Source: Candidatus Latescibacterota bacterium | Lineage (GTDB): Bacteria; Latescibacterota; UBA2968 | Direction of reading: 5' to 3' | DNA: 64,000 bases | Assembly (NCBI GenBank): GCA_965204375.1 | Contig: OZ241986.1 | Span: 32,001-96,000, forward strand | Shown here: piece after piece, positions 52,912 to 64,000 of the stretch | How the letters are laid out: each line of letters starts with the position of its first letter | Numbering within the stretch: position 1 is the stretch's first letter | The notes under the pieces: model-generated | The model's input: the letters and a program-made list of their open reading frames with translations, nothing else | The model's database searches: none | Told to the model about the DNA's origin: nothing | Translations under genes and position numbers: made by a program

Positions 52912-54624
52912 ATGCTTCAGACTCAAAAAAGATTTTGTGATTATCTGGATAACGTAAAAACGGAATTGGGCAAAGCGAGGTCTTCGGGTTTGTTTGAGGA
53001 ACTCGAAAAAAACATCCATGCCTCGGAAGCGTTAAAACAGGATATTGCCGAGGCAGAGTTGATTGTGCCGGTGGTTGGAGCTTTTAGTGCTGGTAAAAGT
53101 ACGTTGATCAATTCTTTTTTAGGTTCTGGCCTTCTACCTGTGGACATAACTCCGGAAACAGCATTGGCAACGGAGTTGCGTTATTCCGAAAGTGAATATA
53201 TCGAGGCAATCAAGGCCGATGATGAGTCGGAACGTTACGACATCGCAGAGATTGAAGCGATCAATGAGAAGGCGAATCAATATCAATATGCAAAAGTCTT
53301 TCTCAATAGTGAACAACTCGAGGAGATTTTTCCATTGATTCTCGTGGATATGCCCGGTTTTGATTCTCCGCTGGATTTACATCACCGAGCTATTTTAACA
53401 TACCTATCCAGAGGAAGCCACTATGCGGTTCTGATCAGTGTAGAGGAAGGCACCATCACCCGCTCGGCCGAGCGGCAGTTGTCCGAGTTTTTCGAGTTTG
53501 ATAAGACGTTTTCCATCTTTCTGAGCAAGGCGAATCTGCGCTCGGATACTGAGGTTGGGGAGATTGCACAGAATATCGAGGAGCGGCTTGAGGACGATTT
53601 TGGTTTTGCCGATTCCGTTGTTCCCGTGGGCATGGATGGCGGCGATAGCCTTGACAAGATGCTCAAGACCATTGATCCAGAAGTGCTTTTCGGCAAGCTC
53701 TGGCGTCCCAATTTGGAGGCGTATTTTTTTAATCTCGATGGCAGTTTGAACACCCGGATCAGTTCTTTAAAAAAGAATCAAAAAGAAAACGAGGAGGCCA
53801 TTGAAAAACTCGCCTCGGGCCTTCAGGATTTAAAAGAAAAAAAGGAAGAGATGATTCAGGATATTCGGGATCGGTATTCCACAACCCATGTCAACGCCAT
53901 TGTAGAGGGGGTGGGCGCAGATCTGAGTGGTTCCGTAGAGGAATTGACACAAGTCGCTATTTCCAGTGGAGAAACTGCCTTGCAGCGAGAATTGTCGGAG
54001 ATTTGCCGTACCTCGCTTTTGAATAATGTGAAAGCCGAAATGGGGCGATTAAACGAACAGATTGTAGAAGACTTATCCAACAGCCTCAAAGGTATTGATC
54101 TTGTTTTCTCCTCTTACACAGATGAACACTGGTTGGAAAAAGTCGCGTCCAATGCGCCACAGCTTATTTCTAAAGGGAGCGCAATTCTTAAAAATGTTGG
54201 TCGTACTGCAAAAGGAGGACGGAATTTTTACCGAGCCATCACGACTATTGGAGCTATTACCACCAGTTTTGTGATACCCATAGTGGAACTTCTAATCGTA
54301 TTCCTTCCAGACATTTTTGGTTATTTCCAAAAACAGAGGCAAGAGGAGCAGATACGCAACCAGTTGCTGGGGACGGTTATCCCCTCCGTCAAAAGCAAAC
54401 TTCGCAGCGAACTTCCCGAATATTTCAATGAGCAAGTGAACCGTCTGATCAATGAGAACGCAGAGGCCCTTGATTTGCAAATCAAGGCCAAACAAAGCGA
54501 AATTGCCGAAGCCGAGAAGGCCAAACAGAACGAGATGCGAGATGTTGAGCAGACGATAGCCGAGCTGACTGATATTCAGGAGAACGTCCGATCACTGGCG
54601 AATCAAGGGATTTTCGCGCAATAA
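52912..54624 (+). CDS. Bacterial dynamin-like GTPase 1 with putative membrane paddle
   Basis: GAFSAGKS, PET, DMPG, SKAN; coiled coils; hydrophobic AITTSFVIPIVELLIVFLPDIF. Confidence 0.88.
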   Translation: MLQTQKRFCDYLDNVKTELGKARSSGLFEELEKNIHASEALKQDIAEAELIVPVVGAFSAGKSTLINSFLGSGLLPVDITPETALATELRYSESEYIEAIKADDESERYDIAEIEAINEKANQYQYAKVFLNSEQLEEIFPLILVDMPGFDSPLDLHHRAILTYLSRGSHYAVLISVEEGTITRSAERQLSEFFEFDKTFSIFLSKANLRSDTEVGEIAQNIEERLEDDFGFADSVVPVGMDGGDSLDKMLKTIDPEVLFGKLWRPNLEAYFFNLDGSLNTRISSLKKNQKENEEAIEKLASGLQDLKEKKEEMIQDIRDRYSTTHVNAIVEGVGADLSGSVEELTQVAISSGETALQRELSEICRTSLLNNVKAEMGRLNEQIVEDLSNSLKGIDLVFSSYTDEHWLEKVASNAPQLISKGSAILKNVGRTAKGGRNFYRAITTIGAITTSFVIPIVELLIVFLPDIFGYFQKQRQEEQIRNQLLGTVIPSVKSKLRSELPEYFNEQVNRLINENAEALDLQIKAKQSEIAEAEKAKQNEMRDVEQTIAELTDIQENVRSLANQGIFAQ

Positions 54625-54636
54625 GGAGAAGCGAAA

Positions 54637-56874
54637 ATGGAAACTACTGGAATTGTCGCATACCGGGAAAAGCTGGAGCAGGTCGTTGGAAGGTATCACG
54701 ACTTTCTCGGTGATGAAGCGGAGAGCCTCTGCCAAGAACACAGCGTTCCCACCGCAAGGGATTTACAGGCGCAGATGGCGTCCATTAAAAATGAGGAACG
54801 CTTACTGAAAATCGGCATTGTGGGGCGGGTCAAGTCGGGAAAATCCTCGTTGCTGAACGCCCTCGTCTTTGATGGGCAAAGTATTCTCCCCGAGGCGGCG
54901 ACCCCAATGACGGCGTCTTTGACGACCTTGTCTTATGGGGAACCGCTGTCGGCGGAAGTGGAATTTTTTACCCAAGAGGATTTAGCGGATATCAGGGACA
55001 AGGCCGAAGAATACGACAGGCAATTGGAGAGGCGCGTCAGAGAAATTCGGAACAAAGAAAAAAAAAGAAAAAGCCTATTTTCTCGAAGGAGTCGGCAAGA
55101 AAACAAGAGCCGATCTCGAAGAGACTCGGATGAACGGGTGCAACGCAGAGCCGAAAGAGAGATGCGCGAGAATATCGTACTCTCGTCCGCCCGCGATCAA
55201 TACAAAAAAATGATCGAGAGCGGAGTATCCCTTGAGAATTTGCCGGAAAATGTACTTCTGAAGTTTGGAAATCCTGCGGATTTACGCAGCCAGTTGAATG
55301 AATATGTCGGTGCGAAGGGTCAGTATATGCCTTTTACCAAAAGCGTCAATATTCGGTTGCCGCAGGAGAATCTCAAGGATATAGAAATTGTAGATACCCC
55401 GGGCATCAACGATCCGGTGCAGTCGCGGGAAGCGCGTACCCAAGAGCACTTGAATCAGTGCGATGTGGTGTTGGTCATCAGTCCTTCGGGGCAATTTATA
55501 AACCAGGTGGATCTGGAATTGATGGATCGCATCACCAGCAAGGAAGGCATCCATGAATTATTTGTGGTGGCTTCTCAAACGGATACCCAGCTTTTAGGCC
55601 ATTTGAAGGCCGAGAATAATGGACAGTTAGATCTCGTGTTGGATAGCCTTACCCGCGTGCTGGGGAACCAATTGGAAAAAGTGATCGCGGACCTAAAAGA
55701 GAGCTCTCCCGAAGTGGGAGATACTTATGATCAGTTGCTCGAAGGGCAAAGCAAGGTCATCCACTCTGCGGGGCTTTGCGAAAGCCTGAAGCAACGCTTC
55801 AGGCAAAAGGATGAGTGGAGCGAGGGGATGCAGCATGTTTGGGACAATTTGCAGACGGGGTATCCCGATTATTTTTCCGATACAGACGAGAATTTGTCGC
55901 GCTTCAACTTGGAAAAGCTGTCCAACATATCGACCATTCGGAATATCGTTGAGCAGGTGCGAGAGAAAAAGCAGGAAATTCTCGATAAGAGGATAGACAA
56001 CTATGTCCATGCAAAATACCAGTCCCTACATGCCTTGAGAAAGGGACTGCTCGCGTATGCCAACGAACGGCAGTCCCAAATTGAGAGCACGGATATTGCA
56101 AAATTCAAGGAACGGAGGAGAGGATTGACAAAGGCTCTCGACGATGCTTCGGAAGAGATAAAGGATGAGTACGAAGAATCGATCTATCTGATAAAAAAAT
56201 CCATGCGAGGTGAATTTAAGCGAGAATCAGAAGCACGCGAGCAGGCGTTAAAACGAAGGATCGAGAATGAGAAAGGAGAAGATAGTGAAACGTATGAAGA
56301 TGGTCTCATATTTAAGAAAACTCGCACCAGGACGTTTGCCACCATCCGCACAAATGCTGTCCATCGACGCTTATCGGAGTTTTCTGAAGAACTGAAAGAG
56401 GAGGTTGTGGATAAAACAGAGGATAAGAAGAAAGATTGGCGGAAGTATCTCAACCAGAATATGACCAAAATTTTAAGAAAACATTTTGGCGATGAGGATT
56501 TGGAAGCCTCCCTGATCAGCCGGGTAATCAGAGATACTGTTCACTCGATAAATATTCCAGCCTTTGAATACAAAAAACAAATTCCAGATTCCTTGAAATC
56601 CCAAGGTGTTTTGAAAGATGAGGAAGCGAAGAAATTTTTTGATGAATCCCGCGACTATGCTGATGATCTATGTAGAGGAACAAAAAAAGAGATAAGCGCG
56701 TACATAAAAGATCTCGCCAAAAGGATGGAGCAAGGGCATTTGTATGAGCGGTTGCTGGAACAATTCCAAAAAGAACTTGCCACACTTGAGAAATCCATTG
56801 CAAACAAGGAAATGGAGTTAAAAAGAATCAGCAATCTCAAGGGTGAGTTAGAAAAAATTGCGGAGATGAACTAA
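54637..56874 (+). CDS. Bacterial dynamin-like GTPase 2
   Basis: GRVKSGKS, TPMT, DTPGINDP; helical insert and long helical stalk. Confidence 0.88.
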   Translation: METTGIVAYREKLEQVVGRYHDFLGDEAESLCQEHSVPTARDLQAQMASIKNEERLLKIGIVGRVKSGKSSLLNALVFDGQSILPEAATPMTASLTTLSYGEPLSAEVEFFTQEDLADIRDKAEEYDRQLERRVREIRNKEKKRKSLFSRRSRQENKSRSRRDSDERVQRRAEREMRENIVLSSARDQYKKMIESGVSLENLPENVLLKFGNPADLRSQLNEYVGAKGQYMPFTKSVNIRLPQENLKDIEIVDTPGINDPVQSREARTQEHLNQCDVVLVISPSGQFINQVDLELMDRITSKEGIHELFVVASQTDTQLLGHLKAENNGQLDLVLDSLTRVLGNQLEKVIADLKESSPEVGDTYDQLLEGQSKVIHSAGLCESLKQRFRQKDEWSEGMQHVWDNLQTGYPDYFSDTDENLSRFNLEKLSNISTIRNIVEQVREKKQEILDKRIDNYVHAKYQSLHALRKGLLAYANERQSQIESTDIAKFKERRRGLTKALDDASEEIKDEYEESIYLIKKSMRGEFKRESEAREQALKRRIENEKGEDSETYEDGLIFKKTRTRTFATIRTNAVHRRLSEFSEELKEEVVDKTEDKKKDWRKYLNQNMTKILRKHFGDEDLEASLISRVIRDTVHSINIPAFEYKKQIPDSLKSQGVLKDEEAKKFFDESRDYADDLCRGTKKEISAYIKDLAKRMEQGHLYERLLEQFQKELATLEKSIANKEMELKRISNLKGELEKIAEMN

Positions 56875-59243
56875 TGTACCAGAAATTTATCCAGAAAGTG
56901 AACTCACTTTGGGAAACATTTGTAAGAAATCGATCAGTGTATAAAAAGCTGTTGAGTAAGGAACATGGTGAGTTGCTCTTAGAACAAGATGCCCTATCGA
57001 AAAGATATGAGCGAGTAAAAACCGAATTGGATGATACTCAAGGCAGTCTCAATAAGCTACGCGATGAACATAGTGGACTATCTCAAAAATACGCACTGGT
57101 CTCCGACCTGCTAACTGCCAAATCCAGTGAAAATGAAGCATTTGAGAAGTTTAAGGAACTTTTTGATGGGGAATTTATGGCCTTTGCCAATAAGGAGTCC
57201 TCACTGGCCGACGAAGCGGCGGCCGTGCAGCAGCTACAAACGCTGGAGAAGCGTTTAGAAAAGATTGTGGCATTCCCGCACACATTTACGAAGCGGTCCA
57301 TTGCCATCGGCGGTGGATTTAGCAGCGGCAAGTCGGCATTTGTCAATAGCTTTATCGAGCATCCCGACATTCAGCTTCCCGTGGGCATTCAGCCGGTTAC
57401 AGCCATTCCCTCGTATGTCATGGACGGTGTGGATGCTTCGATCAAGGGCTATTCCCGTACTGGGGGCACGATCGATATCCCTCCGGATTTCTACGTCCAA
57501 CTGTCCCATGATTTCATAGATACGCTTTCGTTTAATGTCAAGGACTTGATGCCTGAAATCGCCGTGGAAGTGCCGTTGCAGGCGGACTTGTTCGAGCATA
57601 TCTACCTGATCGACACGCCGGGCTACAACCCGGCTGGAGGGCAGACGAGTGAGGACGAGGCTACGTCGGCTGAATTTCTCAAGGATCGGGATGCTTTGAT
57701 CTGGATGATCGGTCTGGACGCGACGGGCACGGTGCCCGAGTCGGATTTGGATTTCATTGAAGGGTTGGAACTGAATGAGCTACCGTTTTATATGGTTTTG
57801 AACAAGGCAGACCTCAAATCCGAAAGCGACTTGACGGATATTGTAAAGGAGGTGTGGGACACGCTTGATGATGCAGGTATTGAGCCTGTGGGCATCAGTG
57901 CGTATAGCGCGACTCTGCGTAAGGAATACCTGTATAAAGGGACGGCACTGCATGATTTTTTTCGCAGCCAAAATCATTTTGTTGAAGACCAGGGGATTGA
58001 ATTAAAAAAGGAGATTGAAGACGTTTTTGAAAAGTACGAAAAGGCTATTGACGATGATGAGAAAACTGCCTATGAGCTGAGGAAAAAACTCAATACTCTC
58101 AATCTCGATATAAACGAACTGGGGGGTGATTCTGACGCTGTGGATGTCTTGCAAGAGAAAATTGACAAGATCAAAAACTCTCAAAACAAAAATTTTGTGC
58201 CGATCAAGGTAGAGATGAAAGAAATACAAACGAAGATGCTCAGAGCAGTGGATGAAATTTTTTGGTCGTTGAGTTCTCAGAGTGCCGAAGCTATGCCCCA
58301 GCCTTTGTCTACTCCAAAGCCAAACAGCAAGAAATCAACAGTGAGACGTCAAGGCTATATCAGGGGCGGAAAATACATCAAGACTGACGCCGAACAATCT
58401 GAAAAACCTGCCTTTGCAAACCCTCAGCCACACTTTGATTCATGTGATTTTGAAAAAAAGCCGAAGAAATCCAAACGAATTGGCGAGGTTGCACGCGAGT
58501 TTAATTTATCAAGTTCGACAATGCTCACGTTGCTCCGCAACCTCGGTTTTAAATCAAGAAGCCCCAGGTCTATCTGTACACAGGAAATGGTTGAGGCAGT
58601 TCAAAGAGAATTAGGTGCTGAACGCCAAAATAATAAAAAGAATACCGAAGCAACAAAACGAATTGGCGAGGTTGCACGCGAGTTTAATTTATCAAGTTCG
58701 ACAATGCTCACGTTGCTCCGCAACCTCGGTTTTAAATCAAGAAGCCCCAAGACTATCTGCACACAAGAAATGGTTGAGGCAGTTCAAAGAGAATTGGATA
58801 TTGAACGTCAAATCGCAAAGAAGAACACCGAAGCAGCATCACAAACGCAGGCATTGATCAACATCAATCAGGCAACAGCAAAAGAGCTTGAGCGTCTGCC
58901 AGGCATTGGTCCTGAAATTGCGAAGCGCATCGTGGCCTATCGCAAACAGAACGGGCTATTTCAACGTATTGACGATCTCATAAATATCCGAGGCATCAGC
59001 CTCAAAATGCTTAATGATATGATCAGCATCAATCAGGCAACAGCAAAAGAGCTTGAGCGTCTGCCAGGCATTGGTCCTGAAATTGCGAAGCGCATCGTGG
59101 CCTATCGCAAACAGAACGGGCTATTTCAACGTATTGACGATCTCATAAAAGTCCAGGGCATCAGCCTCAGAATACTTAATGATCTGCGTTCCAAATTAGA
59201 GTGGAATTTAATAGATGTTTTAAGGCAGGCGAAAAAGCAGTAG
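56874..59243 (+). CDS. Bacterial dynamin-like GTPase 3 with 2x IF2-N-like and 2x ComEA-type HhH C-terminal domains
   Basis: GGFSSGKS, PVT, DTPG, NKAD; TAATG overlap with gene 2; KRIGEVAREFNLSSSTMLTLLRNLGF twice; I.INQATAKELERLPGIGPEIAKRIVAYRKQNGLFQRIDDL twice. Confidence 0.88.
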   Translation: MYQKFIQKVNSLWETFVRNRSVYKKLLSKEHGELLLEQDALSKRYERVKTELDDTQGSLNKLRDEHSGLSQKYALVSDLLTAKSSENEAFEKFKELFDGEFMAFANKESSLADEAAAVQQLQTLEKRLEKIVAFPHTFTKRSIAIGGGFSSGKSAFVNSFIEHPDIQLPVGIQPVTAIPSYVMDGVDASIKGYSRTGGTIDIPPDFYVQLSHDFIDTLSFNVKDLMPEIAVEVPLQADLFEHIYLIDTPGYNPAGGQTSEDEATSAEFLKDRDALIWMIGLDATGTVPESDLDFIEGLELNELPFYMVLNKADLKSESDLTDIVKEVWDTLDDAGIEPVGISAYSATLRKEYLYKGTALHDFFRSQNHFVEDQGIELKKEIEDVFEKYEKAIDDDEKTAYELRKKLNTLNLDINELGGDSDAVDVLQEKIDKIKNSQNKNFVPIKVEMKEIQTKMLRAVDEIFWSLSSQSAEAMPQPLSTPKPNSKKSTVRRQGYIRGGKYIKTDAEQSEKPAFANPQPHFDSCDFEKKPKKSKRIGEVAREFNLSSSTMLTLLRNLGFKSRSPRSICTQEMVEAVQRELGAERQNNKKNTEATKRIGEVAREFNLSSSTMLTLLRNLGFKSRSPKTICTQEMVEAVQRELDIERQIAKKNTEAASQTQALININQATAKELERLPGIGPEIAKRIVAYRKQNGLFQRIDDLINIRGISLKMLNDMISINQATAKELERLPGIGPEIAKRIVAYRKQNGLFQRIDDLIKVQGISLRILNDLRSKLEWNLIDVLRQAKKQ
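58473..58835 (+). repeat. 183-bp in-frame tandem duplication (IF2-N-like unit)
   Basis: Units start at 58473 and 58656; first ~90 bp identical by eye. Confidence 0.92.
58855..59183 (+). repeat. 165-bp in-frame tandem duplication (HhH unit)
   Basis: Units start at 58855 and 59020; near-identical. Confidence 0.92.
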
Positions 59244-59293
59244 TCGAAAGATTAGCGCGTGGTGGCATGGGAAGGCAAGACCTCCATTTAACG

Positions 59294-59345
59294 AAAATAG
59301 CCTCTCGTTAGAATAACTTGACACAAAATAACGAGGGGCTATTTT
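59294..59345. terminator. 17-bp inverted repeat after the dynamin operon (terminator and/or operator) enclosing a TTGACA
   Basis: AAAATAGCCTCTCGTTA ... TAACGAGGGGCTATTTT with one G-U pair; TTGACA at 59318. Confidence 0.6.
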
Positions 59346-59351
59346 GCTAAT

Positions 59352-59545
59352 ATGAAAACTATGACCACATTTGATAAAGATAATGATGCGTTGCGCCGTG
59401 GCCTGGACTATCCCAACAGCCGTTCGAGGTTAAGTCACGTCCACTTCGCCTGCGGCAGGGACTGGATCCCGCCCATTTGAGCGAGATGGACGATGACCTG
59501 GAAATCGAAGAGTTCCTCTGTAAGACTGCACGATTAAATGACATT
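59352..59545 (+). pseudogene. Frameshifted remnant of a VapB-like antitoxin
   Basis: NDALRRGL in one frame, then QPFEVKSRPLRLRQGLDPAHLSEMDDDLEIEEFL in another; RHH N-terminus and toxin absent. Confidence 0.5.
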
Positions 59546-59618
59546 AAAAAGGTCATAAAGATGGATGCAAAACCAAAAAACCACAGGTCGTTCAGGCCGT
59601 GAAAAGGATACTTGCGTC

Positions 59619-61193
59619 ATGCGCTTTTTCAACACCGCTGGTCCAATCAAGCCCGAAAGGCACTACTGCATCCCGCCTTTGGAACGCTTAAATATGGACG
59701 AGGTGTTCGCACTCATCCGAGAAGAGAAATACTTTGTCTTGCACGCGCCGCGGCAGACGGGCAAGACTTCTGCCTTGTTGGCGTTGCGCGATTTACTCAA
59801 CGCTCAGGACACTTACCGTTGCGTTTATGTCAATGTCGAAGGTGGACAAGCCGCACGCGAAGATGTGGAACAGGTGACGCGCGCCTTTCTGGGTGAGTTG
59901 GCATCTCGGGCGCGTTCAGTGGGTGACGAATTTCTGGACGAGATCTGGTTCGACATCCTGGCGAAATACGGGGGCCATGTTGCCTTGCGCGAGGCGTTGA
60001 CGCGCTGGGCACAGGCTGCCCCAAAGCCATTGGTGCTGCTCATTGACGAGATCGATGCTCTGATCGGCGATTCTCTGCTGTCCGTGCTACGGCAGTTGCG
60101 GGCTGGCTATGACCTTCGCCCGGAGGGTTTTCCGCAGAGTGTGGTGCTGTGTGGGGTGCGCGACGTGCGCGATTACCGCATCCAATCCACTGCAGAGAAT
60201 GCGATCATCGCCGGTGGCAGTGCGTTTAATATCCGCGCCGAGTCCCTGCGTTTAGGGGATTTCTCACAGGACGAGGTATTCGATCTCATCGCACAGCACA
60301 CGGCAGAAACGGGACAGGCATTCACAGCCGAGGCCCTGGAGACGATCTGGACGCAGACCCAGGGACAACCGTGGCTGGTCAACGCATTGGCTTATGAAGC
60401 TGGCTTTAAAAACAAGACCGGGCGGGATCGCAGCCAGCCCATTACGGACAACGCAATATGTGACGCACGGGAGCAACTCATCTTGCGCCGAGAGATACAC
60501 CTCGACCAGTTGGCCGATAAGTTGCAGGAAGAACGCGTACAGCGCGTGATTGAACCGCTGCTGAGTGGGGCTGAGGAACGTCGCTTTATTGACCGCGACC
60601 TGGAGTATGTACGCGATCTCGGTCTTGTGGCTCAAGATCTGCCGTACCGCATTGCCAATCCGATCTACGCCGAAGTCGTGCCGCGCGAACTGACGTGGGT
60701 GTTACAGGGGGAGTTTGAGCAGGAAACAGCCTGGTATATCAATGCTGATGGTAGTCTGAATGTGGTCAAACTGATGACCGAGTTTCAGATCTTTTTCCGC
60801 GAACACTCAGAGCACTGGGTGAGACGATTTCAATATCAGGAAGCCGGTCCGCAGTTGTTGTTGCAGGCATTTCTCCAGCGCATTGTAAACAGCGGTGGAC
60901 GCATTGAAAGGGAGTATGGTTTGGGGCGTGGACGCACAGACCTGCTGATTGTCTGGCCGCAGGGCGATGTGACGCGCAAGATTGTGATTGAGTGCAAAAT
61001 TCTCCACAAGAGCCTGGATCAGACCATTGCCGAGGGTTTGGAACAGACGGCGGAGTACATGGATCGTTGCGATGCAGAGGCAGGTCATCTGGTGATTTTT
61101 GACCGCCGTGAAGGGAGGCGTTGGGCGGACAAAGTATTCCGCAATAGTCGGACATCAAGTAGCGGGGTCGAGATTGAGGTGTGGGGAATGTGA
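59619..61193 (+). CDS. AAA-family ATPase with C-terminal PD-(D/E)XK nuclease-like domain
   Basis: MRFFNTAGP start, HAPRQTGKTS, LLIDEID, GQPWLVN; EREYGLGRGRTDLLI...IVIECK. Confidence 0.85.
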   Translation: MRFFNTAGPIKPERHYCIPPLERLNMDEVFALIREEKYFVLHAPRQTGKTSALLALRDLLNAQDTYRCVYVNVEGGQAAREDVEQVTRAFLGELASRARSVGDEFLDEIWFDILAKYGGHVALREALTRWAQAAPKPLVLLIDEIDALIGDSLLSVLRQLRAGYDLRPEGFPQSVVLCGVRDVRDYRIQSTAENAIIAGGSAFNIRAESLRLGDFSQDEVFDLIAQHTAETGQAFTAEALETIWTQTQGQPWLVNALAYEAGFKNKTGRDRSQPITDNAICDAREQLILRREIHLDQLADKLQEERVQRVIEPLLSGAEERRFIDRDLEYVRDLGLVAQDLPYRIANPIYAEVVPRELTWVLQGEFEQETAWYINADGSLNVVKLMTEFQIFFREHSEHWVRRFQYQEAGPQLLLQAFLQRIVNSGGRIEREYGLGRGRTDLLIVWPQGDVTRKIVIECKILHKSLDQTIAEGLEQTAEYMDRCDAEAGHLVIFDRREGRRWADKVFRNSRTSSSGVEIEVWGM

Positions 61194-61265
61194 CGGGATT
61201 CCCGTACAGTGCCCATTTACTGATGTTACTCGGTTTATCTACAATGGGCTGTCATTAGAGAGAGG

Positions 61266-62594
61266 ATGAAAATGGATGCAAAAACCAAAAAATTGCAGGT
61301 GGATCAGGCTGTGAAATCGCAGTCGCGGCGGGCGTTTAAGCTGTCGCGAAGTATTCACGGCTGGGCTGAACGGCCGTTTCAGGAATACGAGTCGTCAAAG
61401 GCGTTGGCGGCGTATTTGGAGGAGAACGGATTTCAAATTGAATTTCCGTGGAAAAATATCCCGACGGCTTTTCGCGCCACCTGGGGTACGGGTAAACCCA
61501 CTATTGGCATGTTGGGGGAGTACGACGCATTGCCCAATTGCGGTGCCGAGGAGGGCACCTGGGGCCACGGCTGAGGTCATAATCTTTTGGGCGTTGCCCC
61601 GGCCGCAGGTGCGGTTGCTGCAAAGACGGTATTGGAAAATTTGGAATCATCCGGCCAGATTATTTATTACGGCTGTCCGGCTGAAGAAACCCTGGCGGGT
61701 AAAGTGTATATGGCCCGCGATGGCGCGTTTCGAGATTTAGATGCGGTGCTGGCATGGCATCCGGGGTCGAGTACGGGTGTTAGCAATTATGGCGGTTCAT
61801 CACTGGATTCGCTGGTGTATGAGTTTTTTGGCAAGACGTCTCACGGCGCGAGTGCTCACAATGGGCGCAGTGCATTGGATGGGGTGATGTTGATGGATGT
61901 TGCGGCGAATTATTTGCGCGAGCACGTTCCCGAAAATGTGCGTATCCACTGTGTAATTCGGGATGGTGGGGACGCGCCCAATGTGGTTCCTGCCTATGCG
62001 AAGGTGTGGTATTATGTGCGAGGGAAGGATCGTGAACAGGTCAATAAAATACGCAAGCGATTGACCAAATGCGCAAAGGGTGCGGCGATGGCCACGGAAA
62101 CGACTATGAAATGGCATCGGATTACGGCTGTGTACCCGCGTTTGCCAAATGATGTGATGTGCGAAACTGTACGTCAAAATCTCAAATTATTCGGTCCGCC
62201 GCGCGCTTCTAAAAACGATAAGGAACGCGTAAAGGAATTGGGATACAAAGGTGAATTTGACGGGAAGATCAAAAAGGGGAAGGGGTCACAGGGGCGCGGG
62301 TCTTCGGATGAAGACAATGTGTCGTGGCTGGCGCCGATGGGTCGGTTTCAGATGGTGTGTTATACCAAGGGTACGCCGGGTCATCATCGCGATATGACCG
62401 CACAGGCGATAATGCCTTATGCCGAGCGCGCGGTTTTGCAAACGGCCAAGGTGTTTGCAGGATCGGCTATTGATCTGATTTTGGACAAGAAGCTGTTACA
62501 AGCAGCGCGTGCGGAATTTGTGAAGGGAACAAAGGGGTTTGAGTACGATCCATTGATTCCAAAACGTCAGAAGGTCCCCGTGGATCCTCCGTAG
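61266..62594 (+). CDS. M20/AbgB-like amidohydrolase, 442 aa, with in-frame TGA (candidate selenocysteine, codon 103) at the metal-ligand Cys
   Basis: ORFs 61266..61574 and 61587..62594 share a frame; read-through gives EYDALP...GHG(TGA)GHNLLG, then GCPAEE, WHP, PNVVP, GSSD. Confidence 0.8.
61575..61626 (+). promoter_or_regulatory. Candidate bacterial SECIS element
   Basis: Hairpin GGCCGC-AGGT-GCGGTT (61601-61616), loop starting 32 nt after the TGA; lower pairing TCTTTTG/CAAAGA possible. Confidence 0.45.
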
Positions 62595-62607: not shown

Positions 62608-63600
62608 TTGAAAGCACAAAGATTAATATGTACAGATATCCGGCGGATTGAATTGGAAGCCTTTGATCTGCCGCGTGTGCCAGACAATGGCATTTTGGTG
62701 CAAAACGATTATACCGCCGTGAGCGTTGGCACGGAAATTTACAATTATGCTTATGGTGGTGAACCGTCGCGTGCGAGGACATTTCCCCGGCCAACGGGAT
62801 ATTGCAATACGGGTGTGGTGCTCGAGGTGGGCAAAGATGTGAAGGGGGTAAAACCAGGTGACCGTATTGCCGCGCAGGGCAATCACACCAGTCACGCGGT
62901 CATAAGTGGGAATTTTTTTAGAGTGCCTGAGGGTGTTTCGCCCAGGTCGGCGGCTTTTATGGTTATGTGTGCTATTGCCATGCATGGGCATCGGGTTGGA
63001 CGTCCGGAATTGGGTGAGGTTGTTGCAATTACCGGTATGGGGATTGTGGGCCAGTTGGCCGCGACTTTTGCGCGAATGGCTGGCGCACTTCCGGTTATTG
63101 CGATTGATCTGGATGATTTTCGGTTGGGTAAAGCGAGAGATAGGGGGGCAGATGTTTGTATCAACCCCAATGCGGAAGGGGATGTCGCCGAAGTGGTGCG
63201 CGAGCATTGCGTGGGCGATGGTGTCGATCTGGTCATCGAAGCAACGGGTATTCCCGCGGTTTATCCCATGGCGTTGACTTTGCCCCGGTTGGGTGGCCGC
63301 TTGGTCGCGCTGGGGTCTCCGCGGGGGACCGTGGAAGTGAGTTTTTTGCCCGAGATTCACTTGCGCGAGATTACGATTCTGGGCGCGCATCAGCCCAAGA
63401 CGCCGGATAATGACCATATTTATTATCCCTGGAGCAAGCGCAGAGATCGCGAGCTAATTTTGCGTTTGATGGCTGAGGGCAAGTTGCCCATTGAAGATTT
63501 GATTACCCATGTCGCCAATCCCGCCGATTGCCAGACTATCTACGATATGCTCGCCGATAATCCCCAAGAAGTGTTGGGTGTGGTATTTGAGTGGGTTTGA
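62608..63600 (+). CDS. MDR-family (zinc-binding-like) dehydrogenase
   Basis: SVGTE, GYCNTG.V, GMGIVG Rossmann motif, IEATG; TTG start after AAGGAG. Confidence 0.88.
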   Translation: MKAQRLICTDIRRIELEAFDLPRVPDNGILVQNDYTAVSVGTEIYNYAYGGEPSRARTFPRPTGYCNTGVVLEVGKDVKGVKPGDRIAAQGNHTSHAVISGNFFRVPEGVSPRSAAFMVMCAIAMHGHRVGRPELGEVVAITGMGIVGQLAATFARMAGALPVIAIDLDDFRLGKARDRGADVCINPNAEGDVAEVVREHCVGDGVDLVIEATGIPAVYPMALTLPRLGGRLVALGSPRGTVEVSFLPEIHLREITILGAHQPKTPDNDHIYYPWSKRRDRELILRLMAEGKLPIEDLITHVANPADCQTIYDMLADNPQEVLGVVFEWV

Positions 63601-63628
63601 TACCGCTTGCCGGTGTCTCAATTCTGGT

Positions 63629-63668
63629 AAAAAGCCCAAGAGATCACCTCTCTGGGGCTTTTTTCTTT
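63629..63668 (+). terminator. Intrinsic terminator
   Basis: AAAAAGCCCAAGAGA-loop-TCTCTGGGGCTTTTTT. Confidence 0.75.
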
Positions 63669-63746
63669 GACAAGTCGCTTTTGGGGCGCAATTATAGGGG
63701 CGTAAAAATGCAGATATACTGTCGAAAATATTTTAAGAGGTGATGA

Positions 63747-64000
63747 ATGGATTTTAAAACCACTGATTTGTGCGATGAACACGAAACCGATCCAGCACTT
63801 CAAGTTGCTGAGCCGATATTTAATGACTATGGCGGTATCACGGCATTTTGCGGTCCGATTGCCACGGTCAAGGTTCACGAAGACAATGTGCTCGTGCGCG
63901 AGATACTCGAAACCCCGGGCGAGGGGCGCGTTCTCGTCGTCGATGGCGAGGGCTCAACGTGGTGTGCGCTTTTGGGGGATATGGTCGCTGAAATCGCCAG
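63747..64000 (+). CDS. rraA: RraA family protein (RNase E regulator/HMG aldolase), truncated by the window edge
   Basis: Manual translation [12 protein letters not shown]...[43 protein letters not shown]; not in the ORF track. Confidence 0.9.

Follow-up and report, generated by a model that had tools for sequence, protein, structure and literature searches.

We analyzed a window of 64,000 nucleotides from a Candidatus Latescibacterota bacterium (contig OZ241986.1, positions 32,001 to 96,000), in which one gene probably encodes a selenocysteine (Sec)-containing amidohydrolase of the M20D type. The host genome is a single contig of 6.34 Mb. Two open reading frames on the + strand, 61266-61574 and 61587-62594, lie in the same frame and are interrupted solely by a TGA at 61572-61574, as an earlier note on this DNA had described. 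Reading through the TGA yields a product of 442 residues from the ATG at 61266 (named P0001, whose residue numbers are used throughout), with WGHG-U-GHNLLG across the break in agreement with the GHG-x-GHNLLG of that note; the peptide around the Sec codon in the read-through translation is TWGHG-U-GHNLLGVAPAAGAVAAK. The gene comprises the following features:

61257-61265, + strand: Shine-Dalgarno-like purine-rich stretch AGAGAGAGG, seen in the sequence; immediately upstream of the ATG at 61266 and 6 nt from that at 61272
61272-62594, + strand: coding sequence of the predicted M20D-type amidohydrolase selenoprotein, 440 amino acids with Sec as residue 101; it matches TIGR01891, PF07687 and HmrA (3RAM)
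61572-61574, + strand: putative Sec codon, an in-frame TGA at the position of the metal-bridging Cys; all 55 close orthologues have TGA here

The second ATG, at 61272, is the probable start codon, because the full-length homologues have 440 amino acids, in seven members of the genus a TAG interrupts the longer frame within its opening one or two codons, and a GAGG lies 6 nt upstream of this ATG. The end of the span first proposed for the gene (61266-62594) stands and its start is corrected to the likelier 61272, which makes Sec residue 101 of the actual product (103 as P0001 is numbered).

P0001 matches the NCBIfam model TIGR01891 ("amidohydrolase") over residues 26-376 with 199.2 bits (cut-off 153.75) and the M20 dimerisation domain PF07687 with 31.4 bits (cut-off 21); no selenoprotein-specific NCBIfam model matched it. 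The best solved relatives are HmrA (3RAM, E = 2e-41) and PM20D2/Xaa-Arg dipeptidase (7YH4, E = 1.4e-37), followed by weaker matches to ILL2, YxeP, N-AGA (6SLF) and an AbgB-like protein. Of the label "M20/AbgB-type" given at first, the M20D part is borne out by TIGR01891 and the AbgB part is not, the closest solved relatives being HmrA and PM20D2. The TGA aligns with the Cys of GHACGHN (the H-x-C-G-H motif) in HmrA (3RAM), PM20D2 (7YH4) and ILL2 (1XMB), which confirms its assignment to the Cys of H-[GA]-C-G-H. In N-AGA, a solved M20D enzyme, the structure paper describes the Cys sulfur as a ligand of both zinc ions (PMC7209930), as the earlier note had held for the di-metal center of this family, and a review of M20D agrees on the metal-ligating Cys (PMC11511702). 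By this alignment, the UGA is predicted to stand at the metal-bridging position.

When P0001 is aligned with 19 homologues (alignment A1), residues U103, H105, E140/E141, H165 and H373/H374 do not vary. The ligand identities were transferred from those described for N-AGA (PMC7209930) and assigned in P0001 by sequence alignment alone. The corresponding codons, together with that of a conserved Cys ahead of the motif, are as follows:

61539-61541, + strand: Cys92 codon in P[ND]CG, part of a 7-residue insert that HmrA and PM20D2 do not have; unchanged in Sec and Cys forms of this subfamily
61578-61580, + strand: codon of His105, putative metal ligand equivalent to His107 of N-AGA; invariant in A1, with a C-x-H spacing like that of N-AGA
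61683-61688, + strand: codons of Glu140-Glu141 (PAEE), putative metal ligand and general base equivalent to Glu141 of N-AGA; invariant in A1 and aligned with GCPAEE of HmrA
61758-61760, + strand: codon of His165 (WHP), putative equivalent of His168 of N-AGA; invariant in A1 and aligned with HPG of HmrA
62382-62387, + strand: codons of His373-His374 (GHH), one of which may be equivalent to His370 of N-AGA; invariant in A1 and matched to GH of HmrA by position only

Cys92 lies eleven residues ahead of Sec and may be close to the metal site, as a possible selenenylsulfide partner.

Conservation of the in-frame TGA

Among 40 relatives and the genome itself, we found 39 orthologues (71-100% identity), each with exactly one in-frame TGA, and the TGA occupied the identical codon in all 39 when checked codon by codon; two genomes of one genus gave no orthologue match. 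A search of 168 genomes of the phylum gave a match at E <= 1e-40 in 80. All 55 genomes with at least 71% identity carry a single TGA at the Sec codon, and neither TAA nor TAG was found at this codon in these 55 genomes or in the 52 distinct sequences. An orthologue with 68% identity (genome G154) and 27 remoter matches of the phylum (34-47%) have no stop. The exact DNA pattern WGHG-TGA-GHN was found at 53 places in species-representative genomes, comprising 52 orthologues and one chance match, so the TGA recurs in divergent homologues by both routes. The pattern PGHG-TGA-GHN of a remoter subgroup occurred in the same kind of genomes at four places, all by chance; TGA motifs of the HACGH type were left out of the scans because too many chance matches were expected.

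Synonymous divergence (dS) between families has reached saturation, at 2.8. The ratio of nonsynonymous to synonymous substitution rates (dN/dS) is 0.09-0.11 in the 100 codons upstream of the TGA and 0.065-0.067 in the part downstream. The low dN/dS on both sides indicates that both halves are translated and constrained, in line with the first impression that they are intact. One genome by itself could not rule out a pseudogene, or a TGA produced by an assembly or sequencing error, and the earlier note had pointed out that a single nonsense change would look the same. This explanation is now extremely improbable, given the same codon in 55 species-level genomes and in metagenome contigs and a dN/dS of 0.07-0.11 on both sides. 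The codon also has support at the level of public sequencing runs. Contigs from four runs (one DNA and three RNA libraries of separate studies) bridge the TGA, with no difference between 61243 and 61687 among those listed, the list being 77 differences short; such contigs are no proof of expression, and RNA libraries may contain DNA.

TGA is an ordinary stop in this genome, where it terminates 829 of the 2057 open frames of at least 400 codons, and the neighboring gene ends in a TGA at 61191-61193. The UGA could be read as a true stop that splits the gene into polypeptides of 100 and roughly 335 amino acids, working apart or assembled. Public gene calls, which give only a C-terminal product of 320-336 amino acids, and a TTG five codons past the TGA in the window speak for such a split. 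However, this TTG is replaced by CTG in 23 of 51 sequences, and no restart is conserved: the first in-frame ATG, GTG or TTG lies 4 to 46 codons past the TGA depending on the sequence. In addition, a break here would sever the H-x-C-G-H motif and cost the enzyme its bridging ligand, TGA alone is used in the 52 distinct sequences despite the saturated dS, and the next 24 nt are frozen only in the TGA forms. We therefore consider a split gene very improbable.

The gene calls reflect how the family stands in public records. The Sec forms in the protein collection are only C-terminal fragments of 320-336 amino acids, one cluster of which has 217 members; NCBI names such fragments "amidohydrolase" or "peptidase dimerization domain-containing protein" and annotates the present gene as a truncated protein. 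The Cys forms in the same collection include full-length proteins of 440 amino acids with up to 83% identity to P0001. The closest Cys forms of the gene are 60-83% identical to P0001, and the solved proteins are far remoter. The more distant homologues outside the Sec clade all have Cys: of the loci fetched, 50 of 80 from genomes and 57 of 59 from metagenomes have TGC or TGT at the codon, and their records carry labels such as Verrucomicrobiota, Planctomycetota and Chloroflexota; these scans included a Cys-coding pattern and are hence biased to Cys forms, a bias that the TGA pattern scans correct. The two other TIGR01891 genes of the genome, located elsewhere, have HACGH with Cys.

In a maximum-likelihood tree of 116 proteins (51 Sec and 65 Cys), the Sec/Cys state requires at least three changes. 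Two Cys proteins (P0002 and P0003) are sister to the Sec clade of family f1 with 99% support, and a third (P0004) is nested within the larger Sec clade; the Cys of all three is known from protein records alone. The test of a single Sec clade was borderline, with p = 0.0498 in the approximately unbiased (AU) test. Repeated switching between Sec and Cys is likely but not settled.

The genome holds the machinery for Sec decoding, for which the earlier note had suggested a search. The selA (580 bits) and selB (389 bits) genes are adjacent; selD (369 bits) has an in-frame TGA of its own and adjoins a tRNA-Sec (70 bits, anticodon TCA by ARAGORN); all four are above the curated cut-offs. A TGA in frame is present in at least eight further genes of known selenoprotein families: selD, an FdhA-like gene, five of the 23 AhpC/TSA matches and one Rdx gene, the sole Rdx/SelW-like match. 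Of the 168 genomes of the phylum, 131 gave a selA match; of the 55 with the TGA form, 54 did. The carrier in which selA was not detected (G013, 91% complete in 430 contigs) has a selD with TGA and a tRNA-Sec of 68.5 bits. The phylum has a single Cys orthologue, in G154. In this genome and in G155 of the same genus (86% and 90% complete, respectively), neither selA nor selD was found above the cut-off, and the tRNA-Sec scores reach only the level of ordinary long-arm tRNAs.

The genome as a whole is rich in selenoproteins, with at least nine genes with an in-frame TGA in selenoprotein families. Outside the window, a compact selenium locus at 5302053-5303902 of the genome contig consists of an AhpC/TSA gene with TGA (WASW-U-GC), then the selD gene with TGA, and then the tRNA-Sec.

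Hairpins downstream of the codon

The coding sequence just after the TGA contains three features that bear on a possible Sec insertion sequence (SECIS):

61589-61599, + strand: small hairpin GGGC-GUU-GCCC, -4.6 kcal/mol, with its loop at +22 to +24 from the UGA
61590-61613, + strand: codons 109-116 with frozen synonymous sites, 0.13 bits mean entropy, the lowest of 167 windows
61600-61617, + strand: candidate SECIS hairpin with a 7-bp stem CGGCCGC/GCGGUUG, an AGGU loop and 32 nt from the UGA to the loop

The hairpin with GCAGGT at its apex that was first noticed at 61601-61616 is real, with GCAGGT at 61605-61610; its stem arms are 61600-61606 and 61611-61617, and the loop AGGT occupies 61607-61610. 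These 18 nt fold at -9.4 kcal/mol (z = -2.86; 4 of 200 shuffles were equally stable), and the stability of the whole 69-nt stretch after the TGA is unexceptional (z = +0.74). The bacterial SECIS (bSECIS) model, as set out in a 2026 inventory of prokaryotic selenoproteins, has a loop of 3-9 nt, a stem of 4-16 bp, a G in the first two loop positions, a distance of 16-37 nt from the UGA and a minimum free energy of at most -7.5 kcal/mol (PMC13188914). The 7-bp hairpin satisfies this model with its 4-nt loop, G in second place, 7 bp, 32 nt and -9.4 kcal/mol, and the candidate element occurs only once in the genome. The hairpin is also conserved: the aligned 18 nt fold at -7.5 kcal/mol or below in 51 of 52 Sec forms versus 8 of 75 Cys forms.

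The constraint on the RNA is seen in the codons as well. Entropy, counted at conserved residues with four- and six-fold degeneracy, has a gene mean of 1.40 bits per codon (51 distinct Sec-form coding sequences, 167 codons), and of the nine codons that vary least in the gene, seven fall within codons 109-116. In 38 Cys forms, the same codons have 1.2-1.8 bits and the peptide varies too. The four pairs of the small hairpin are invariant in 44 of 44 distinct sequences, with loops GUU, GUA or ACA. For the candidate SECIS hairpin, 99.7% of the cells are paired over these 44 sequences, with a single A-C break, and the variants of the pairs, C-G/U-G and G-C/G-U/A-U, preserve pairing.

Codon 102, GGC at 61569-61571 just before the UGA, is kept in 48 of 51 sequences, with 0.38 bits versus 1.61 in the Cys forms. 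RNAalifold pairs this codon with bases past the second hairpin (columns 3-5 with 53-55). The fixed codon could be a decoding context effect or part of a larger fold.

Several observations weigh against a selenoprotein with a dedicated hairpin. Although pairing after the TGA is kept, compensatory change is weak: the covariation is not significant (42 of 500 shuffles reach the observed score), 6 of 9 pairs are invariant, and three cells, all in one pair, are changed on both sides. The RNA evidence therefore consists of invariance and not of compensatory change. The apical loop starts at +36, compared with +20 to +25 in eight other selenoprotein genes of the genome, which sets the loop of the 7-bp hairpin about 12 nt further from the UGA than theirs; only the GUU loop of the small hairpin sits at the usual spacing. 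Given these two spacings, the contact of SelB may be with either hairpin. The likeness to fdhF of E. coli K-12 holds for the letters, GCAGGT following the TGA in both genes, but not for their position (+19 to +24 in fdhF and +34 to +39 here), the GCAGGU of fdhF being 15 nt closer to the UGA. The peptide APA[AV]GAV by itself favors GC-rich, self-complementary codons. A Cys-form (TGT) metagenome fragment, L212, folds as stably as the Sec forms, at -9.9 kcal/mol with the loop CGGC, and may be either a recent Sec-to-Cys convert or a measure of the fold that the peptide alone produces. An Rfam scan of 61400-61800 with E up to 10 gave three sub-threshold chance matches and no SECIS family. On the side of the protein, P0001 stays below the threshold of the Pfam catalytic domain PF01546, for which many homologues carry a precomputed match, and both the presence of selenium and the ligand geometry of the Sec site are deduced from sequence and its alignment.

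Some of these points would also suit a reading in which Cys-tRNA-Sec, or a tRNA for Trp, Cys or Arg acting as a near-cognate or suppressor, decodes the UGA and the hairpin only promotes read-through. The inserted residue cannot be identified from the DNA letters, the hairpin spacing is unlike that of the other Sec genes of the genome, and the covariation is weak. However, the codon lies exactly at the Cys position of the homologues, its carriers own the Sec machinery, with selA in all but one, and the sole Cys orthologue of the phylum belongs to a lineage without detected selA and selD. Furthermore, the hairpin fits the bSECIS model, with G at the second loop position and then G and U. Decoding by such a tRNA is thus quite improbable, and we hold with high confidence that the gene represents a genuine, conserved and so far unlisted selenoprotein family. 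Those refuting conditions of the earlier note that were put to the data all turned out in favor of its reading.

Genomic neighborhood

The gene is followed at a distance of 13 nt by one further feature:

62608-63600, + strand: zinc-type (MDR) dehydrogenase gene, with PF00107 and PF08240

The dehydrogenase gene is probably co-transcribed with the amidohydrolase gene, and past it lie genes for an RraA-like aldolase, a sulfatase and an aldo/keto reductase. In both family f1 and family f2, the Sec-form gene has this dehydrogenase as a companion. In the three f2 loci examined, a Peptidase_M19 dipeptidase gene stands directly after the Sec-form gene, and in two of them (L233 and L261) the dehydrogenase comes next after it. 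Overall, 47 of 63 Sec loci have the dehydrogenase nearby, compared with 0 of 38 Cys loci, in a redundant set in which the 63 include one chance locus (L238). No neighbor was conserved beyond families f1 and f2 among the loci examined. The enzyme reads as a predicted amidohydrolase of peptide or N-acyl-amino-acid catabolism.

The wider region downstream, 62608-64000 of the window and 95000-104500 in the numbering of the genome contig, is a catabolic cluster that encodes the MDR dehydrogenase, the RraA-like aldolase, two sulfatases, two aldo/keto reductases and a GFO/IDH/MocA oxidoreductase. The public runs that contain the gene are labelled sponge and coral metagenomes. Upstream, 52912-61193 contains three consecutive dynamin-family GTPase genes (570, 745 and 789 amino acids) and then an AAA_22/AAA_35 ATPase gene. 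The first GTPase has weak PADLOC matches to LeoA and LeoBC (E about 1e-7 to 1e-8), and the third also has helix-hairpin-helix and IF2_N domains; these genes may form a Leo/dynamin-type defence cluster. Of 80 related loci, only 5 have the ATPase gene ahead of the amidohydrolase gene.

Proposed role and comparison with known systems

What the sequences show is the codon with its conservation, the decoding machinery, the constrained hairpin, the match between Sec and Cys forms, and purifying selection on both halves of the gene; the insertion of Sec, its metal ligation, the identity of the metals, the substrate and any advantage of Sec we infer. In the proposed mechanism, the gene at 61272-62594 would encode one full-length M20D amidohydrolase, and the UGA at 61572-61574 would be decoded as Sec by SelA, SelB, SelD and tRNA-Sec, directed by the coding-sequence hairpin at 61600-61617, possibly with the small hairpin at 61589-61599. 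The selenolate of Sec103 would replace the thiolate that binds both catalytic metal ions in solved M20D enzymes, and would bind the metals together with His105, Glu140/141, His165 and His373/374. The substrate, a dipeptide or an N-acyl amino acid, would then have its amide bond hydrolysed via ordinary metal-activated water chemistry.

As to what Sec might add, we can only guess that the bridging ligand resists irreversible oxidation, or that the metal affinity shifts. A bolder version, which we put forward tentatively and regard as rather doubtful, is that Sec103 bridges both metals, as the first natural selenolate-bridged metallohydrolase, and confers a property beyond the reach of Cys. Candidates for such a property include another metal preference, protection of the bridging ligand against irreversible oxidation in a host-associated habitat, and a reversible selenenylsulfide switch with Cys92. 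If true, a Sec-only property would explain why the UGA was held through saturated divergence while nearby lineages turned to Cys.

Among solved enzymes, the N-alpha-acyl-glutamine aminoacylase N-AGA (CsAga) of Corynebacterium striatum (PDB 6SLF, MEROPS M20D) belongs to the same TIGR01891 subfamily, with a sequence match of E = 2.9e-5. Its ligands, Cys-x-His, Glu, His and His, would correspond to U103, H105, E140/141, H165 and H373/374 of P0001. Compared with N-AGA, P0001 has a UGA-encoded putative Sec as the bridging residue and, ahead of the motif, seven inserted residues that include a conserved Cys. HmrA of Staphylococcus aureus and PM20D2, described as M20D enzymes of the carboxydipeptidase or aminoacylase types (PMC11511702), align with P0001 in the GHACGHN, PAEE and HP motifs, but both have Cys instead of Sec and are without the NCGxxGxW insert of P0001. 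AbgB, the subunit B of p-aminobenzoyl-glutamate hydrolase, is in the same TIGR01891 superfamily, and JGI names homologues "aminobenzoyl-glutamate utilization protein B". The solved AbgB-like protein 3IO1 matches P0001 weakly (E = 6.4e-5, residues 100-304 only), and no abgA- or abgT-like gene adjoins the locus, whose neighbors are the dehydrogenase, the RraA-like aldolase and, in f2, the M19 dipeptidase. An identity as AbgB was rejected on the grounds of this weak match and of neighbors unrelated to the abg genes. Sapep was dropped as a comparator for the Cys ligand, being an Asp-bridged, PepV-like enzyme.

The 2026 inventory, by its own description the most comprehensive, comprises 119 prokaryotic selenoprotein families and subfamilies (PMC13188914), and its Table 1 has no M20, amidohydrolase or peptidase entry, in agreement with the first suggestion that this family is not among the described selenoproteins. 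The terms amidohydrolase, peptidase, M20, aminoacylase and hydrolase are absent from the main texts of this inventory, of BSepDB (2026) and of deep-Sep (2025), and equally from those of a 2022 review, the GOS study (2008) and the Olavius symbiont study (2007). Full-text searches gave nothing relevant that links selenoproteins to M20 peptidases, amidohydrolases or aminobenzoyl-glutamate, or Latescibacter to selenocysteine, although supplementary tables might list the family. Of the papers that came up there, a bile-salt hydrolase preprint concerns a different fold, and a C. avium genome note and an SDMH paper mention M20 and selenium together only incidentally.

Non-redox selenoproteins with hydrolase-type folds have been predicted before by Cys/Sec pairing, in a UshA-like protein and in a CTP-synthase-related glutamine amidotransferase (PMC13188914). 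Those proteins have other folds and the motifs CxU and GxUxG; no M20 peptidase is among them and none is described as a two-metal bridge (PMC13188914). According to the same inventory, most prokaryotic selenoproteins are thiol-type oxidoreductases, and contact between Sec and metal is found there in redox enzymes (PMC13188914). Close parallels to the present site are the alpha subunit of formate dehydrogenase (Mo/W) and the [NiFeSe] hydrogenases, which have Sec for a metal-ligand Cys and a SECIS hairpin within the coding region after the UGA, as reported in the inventory (PMC13188914); the FdhA-like gene of this genome carries such a UGA.

The recoding mechanism is standard for bacteria and the fold of the enzyme is well known; the novelty is the combination of a hydrolase with a predicted Sec at the two-metal bridging ligand. 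Such a chemical role for Sec would be unusual. The gene is mis-annotated as truncated in public records, and catalogues and annotation pipelines would gain a family model. The family would also provide a clean natural comparison of Sec with Cys, and with it a way to ask what repays the cost of Sec where no redox catalysis is involved, with two Cys paralogues in the genome, Cys orthologues of up to 83% identity and possibly repeated switches as material for comparison. In contrast to formate dehydrogenase and [NiFeSe] hydrogenase, which are redox enzymes, the present protein is predicted to be a hydrolase with Lewis-acid metals in which Sec would bridge two ions, and this, if true, would be a new chemical role for the 21st amino acid.

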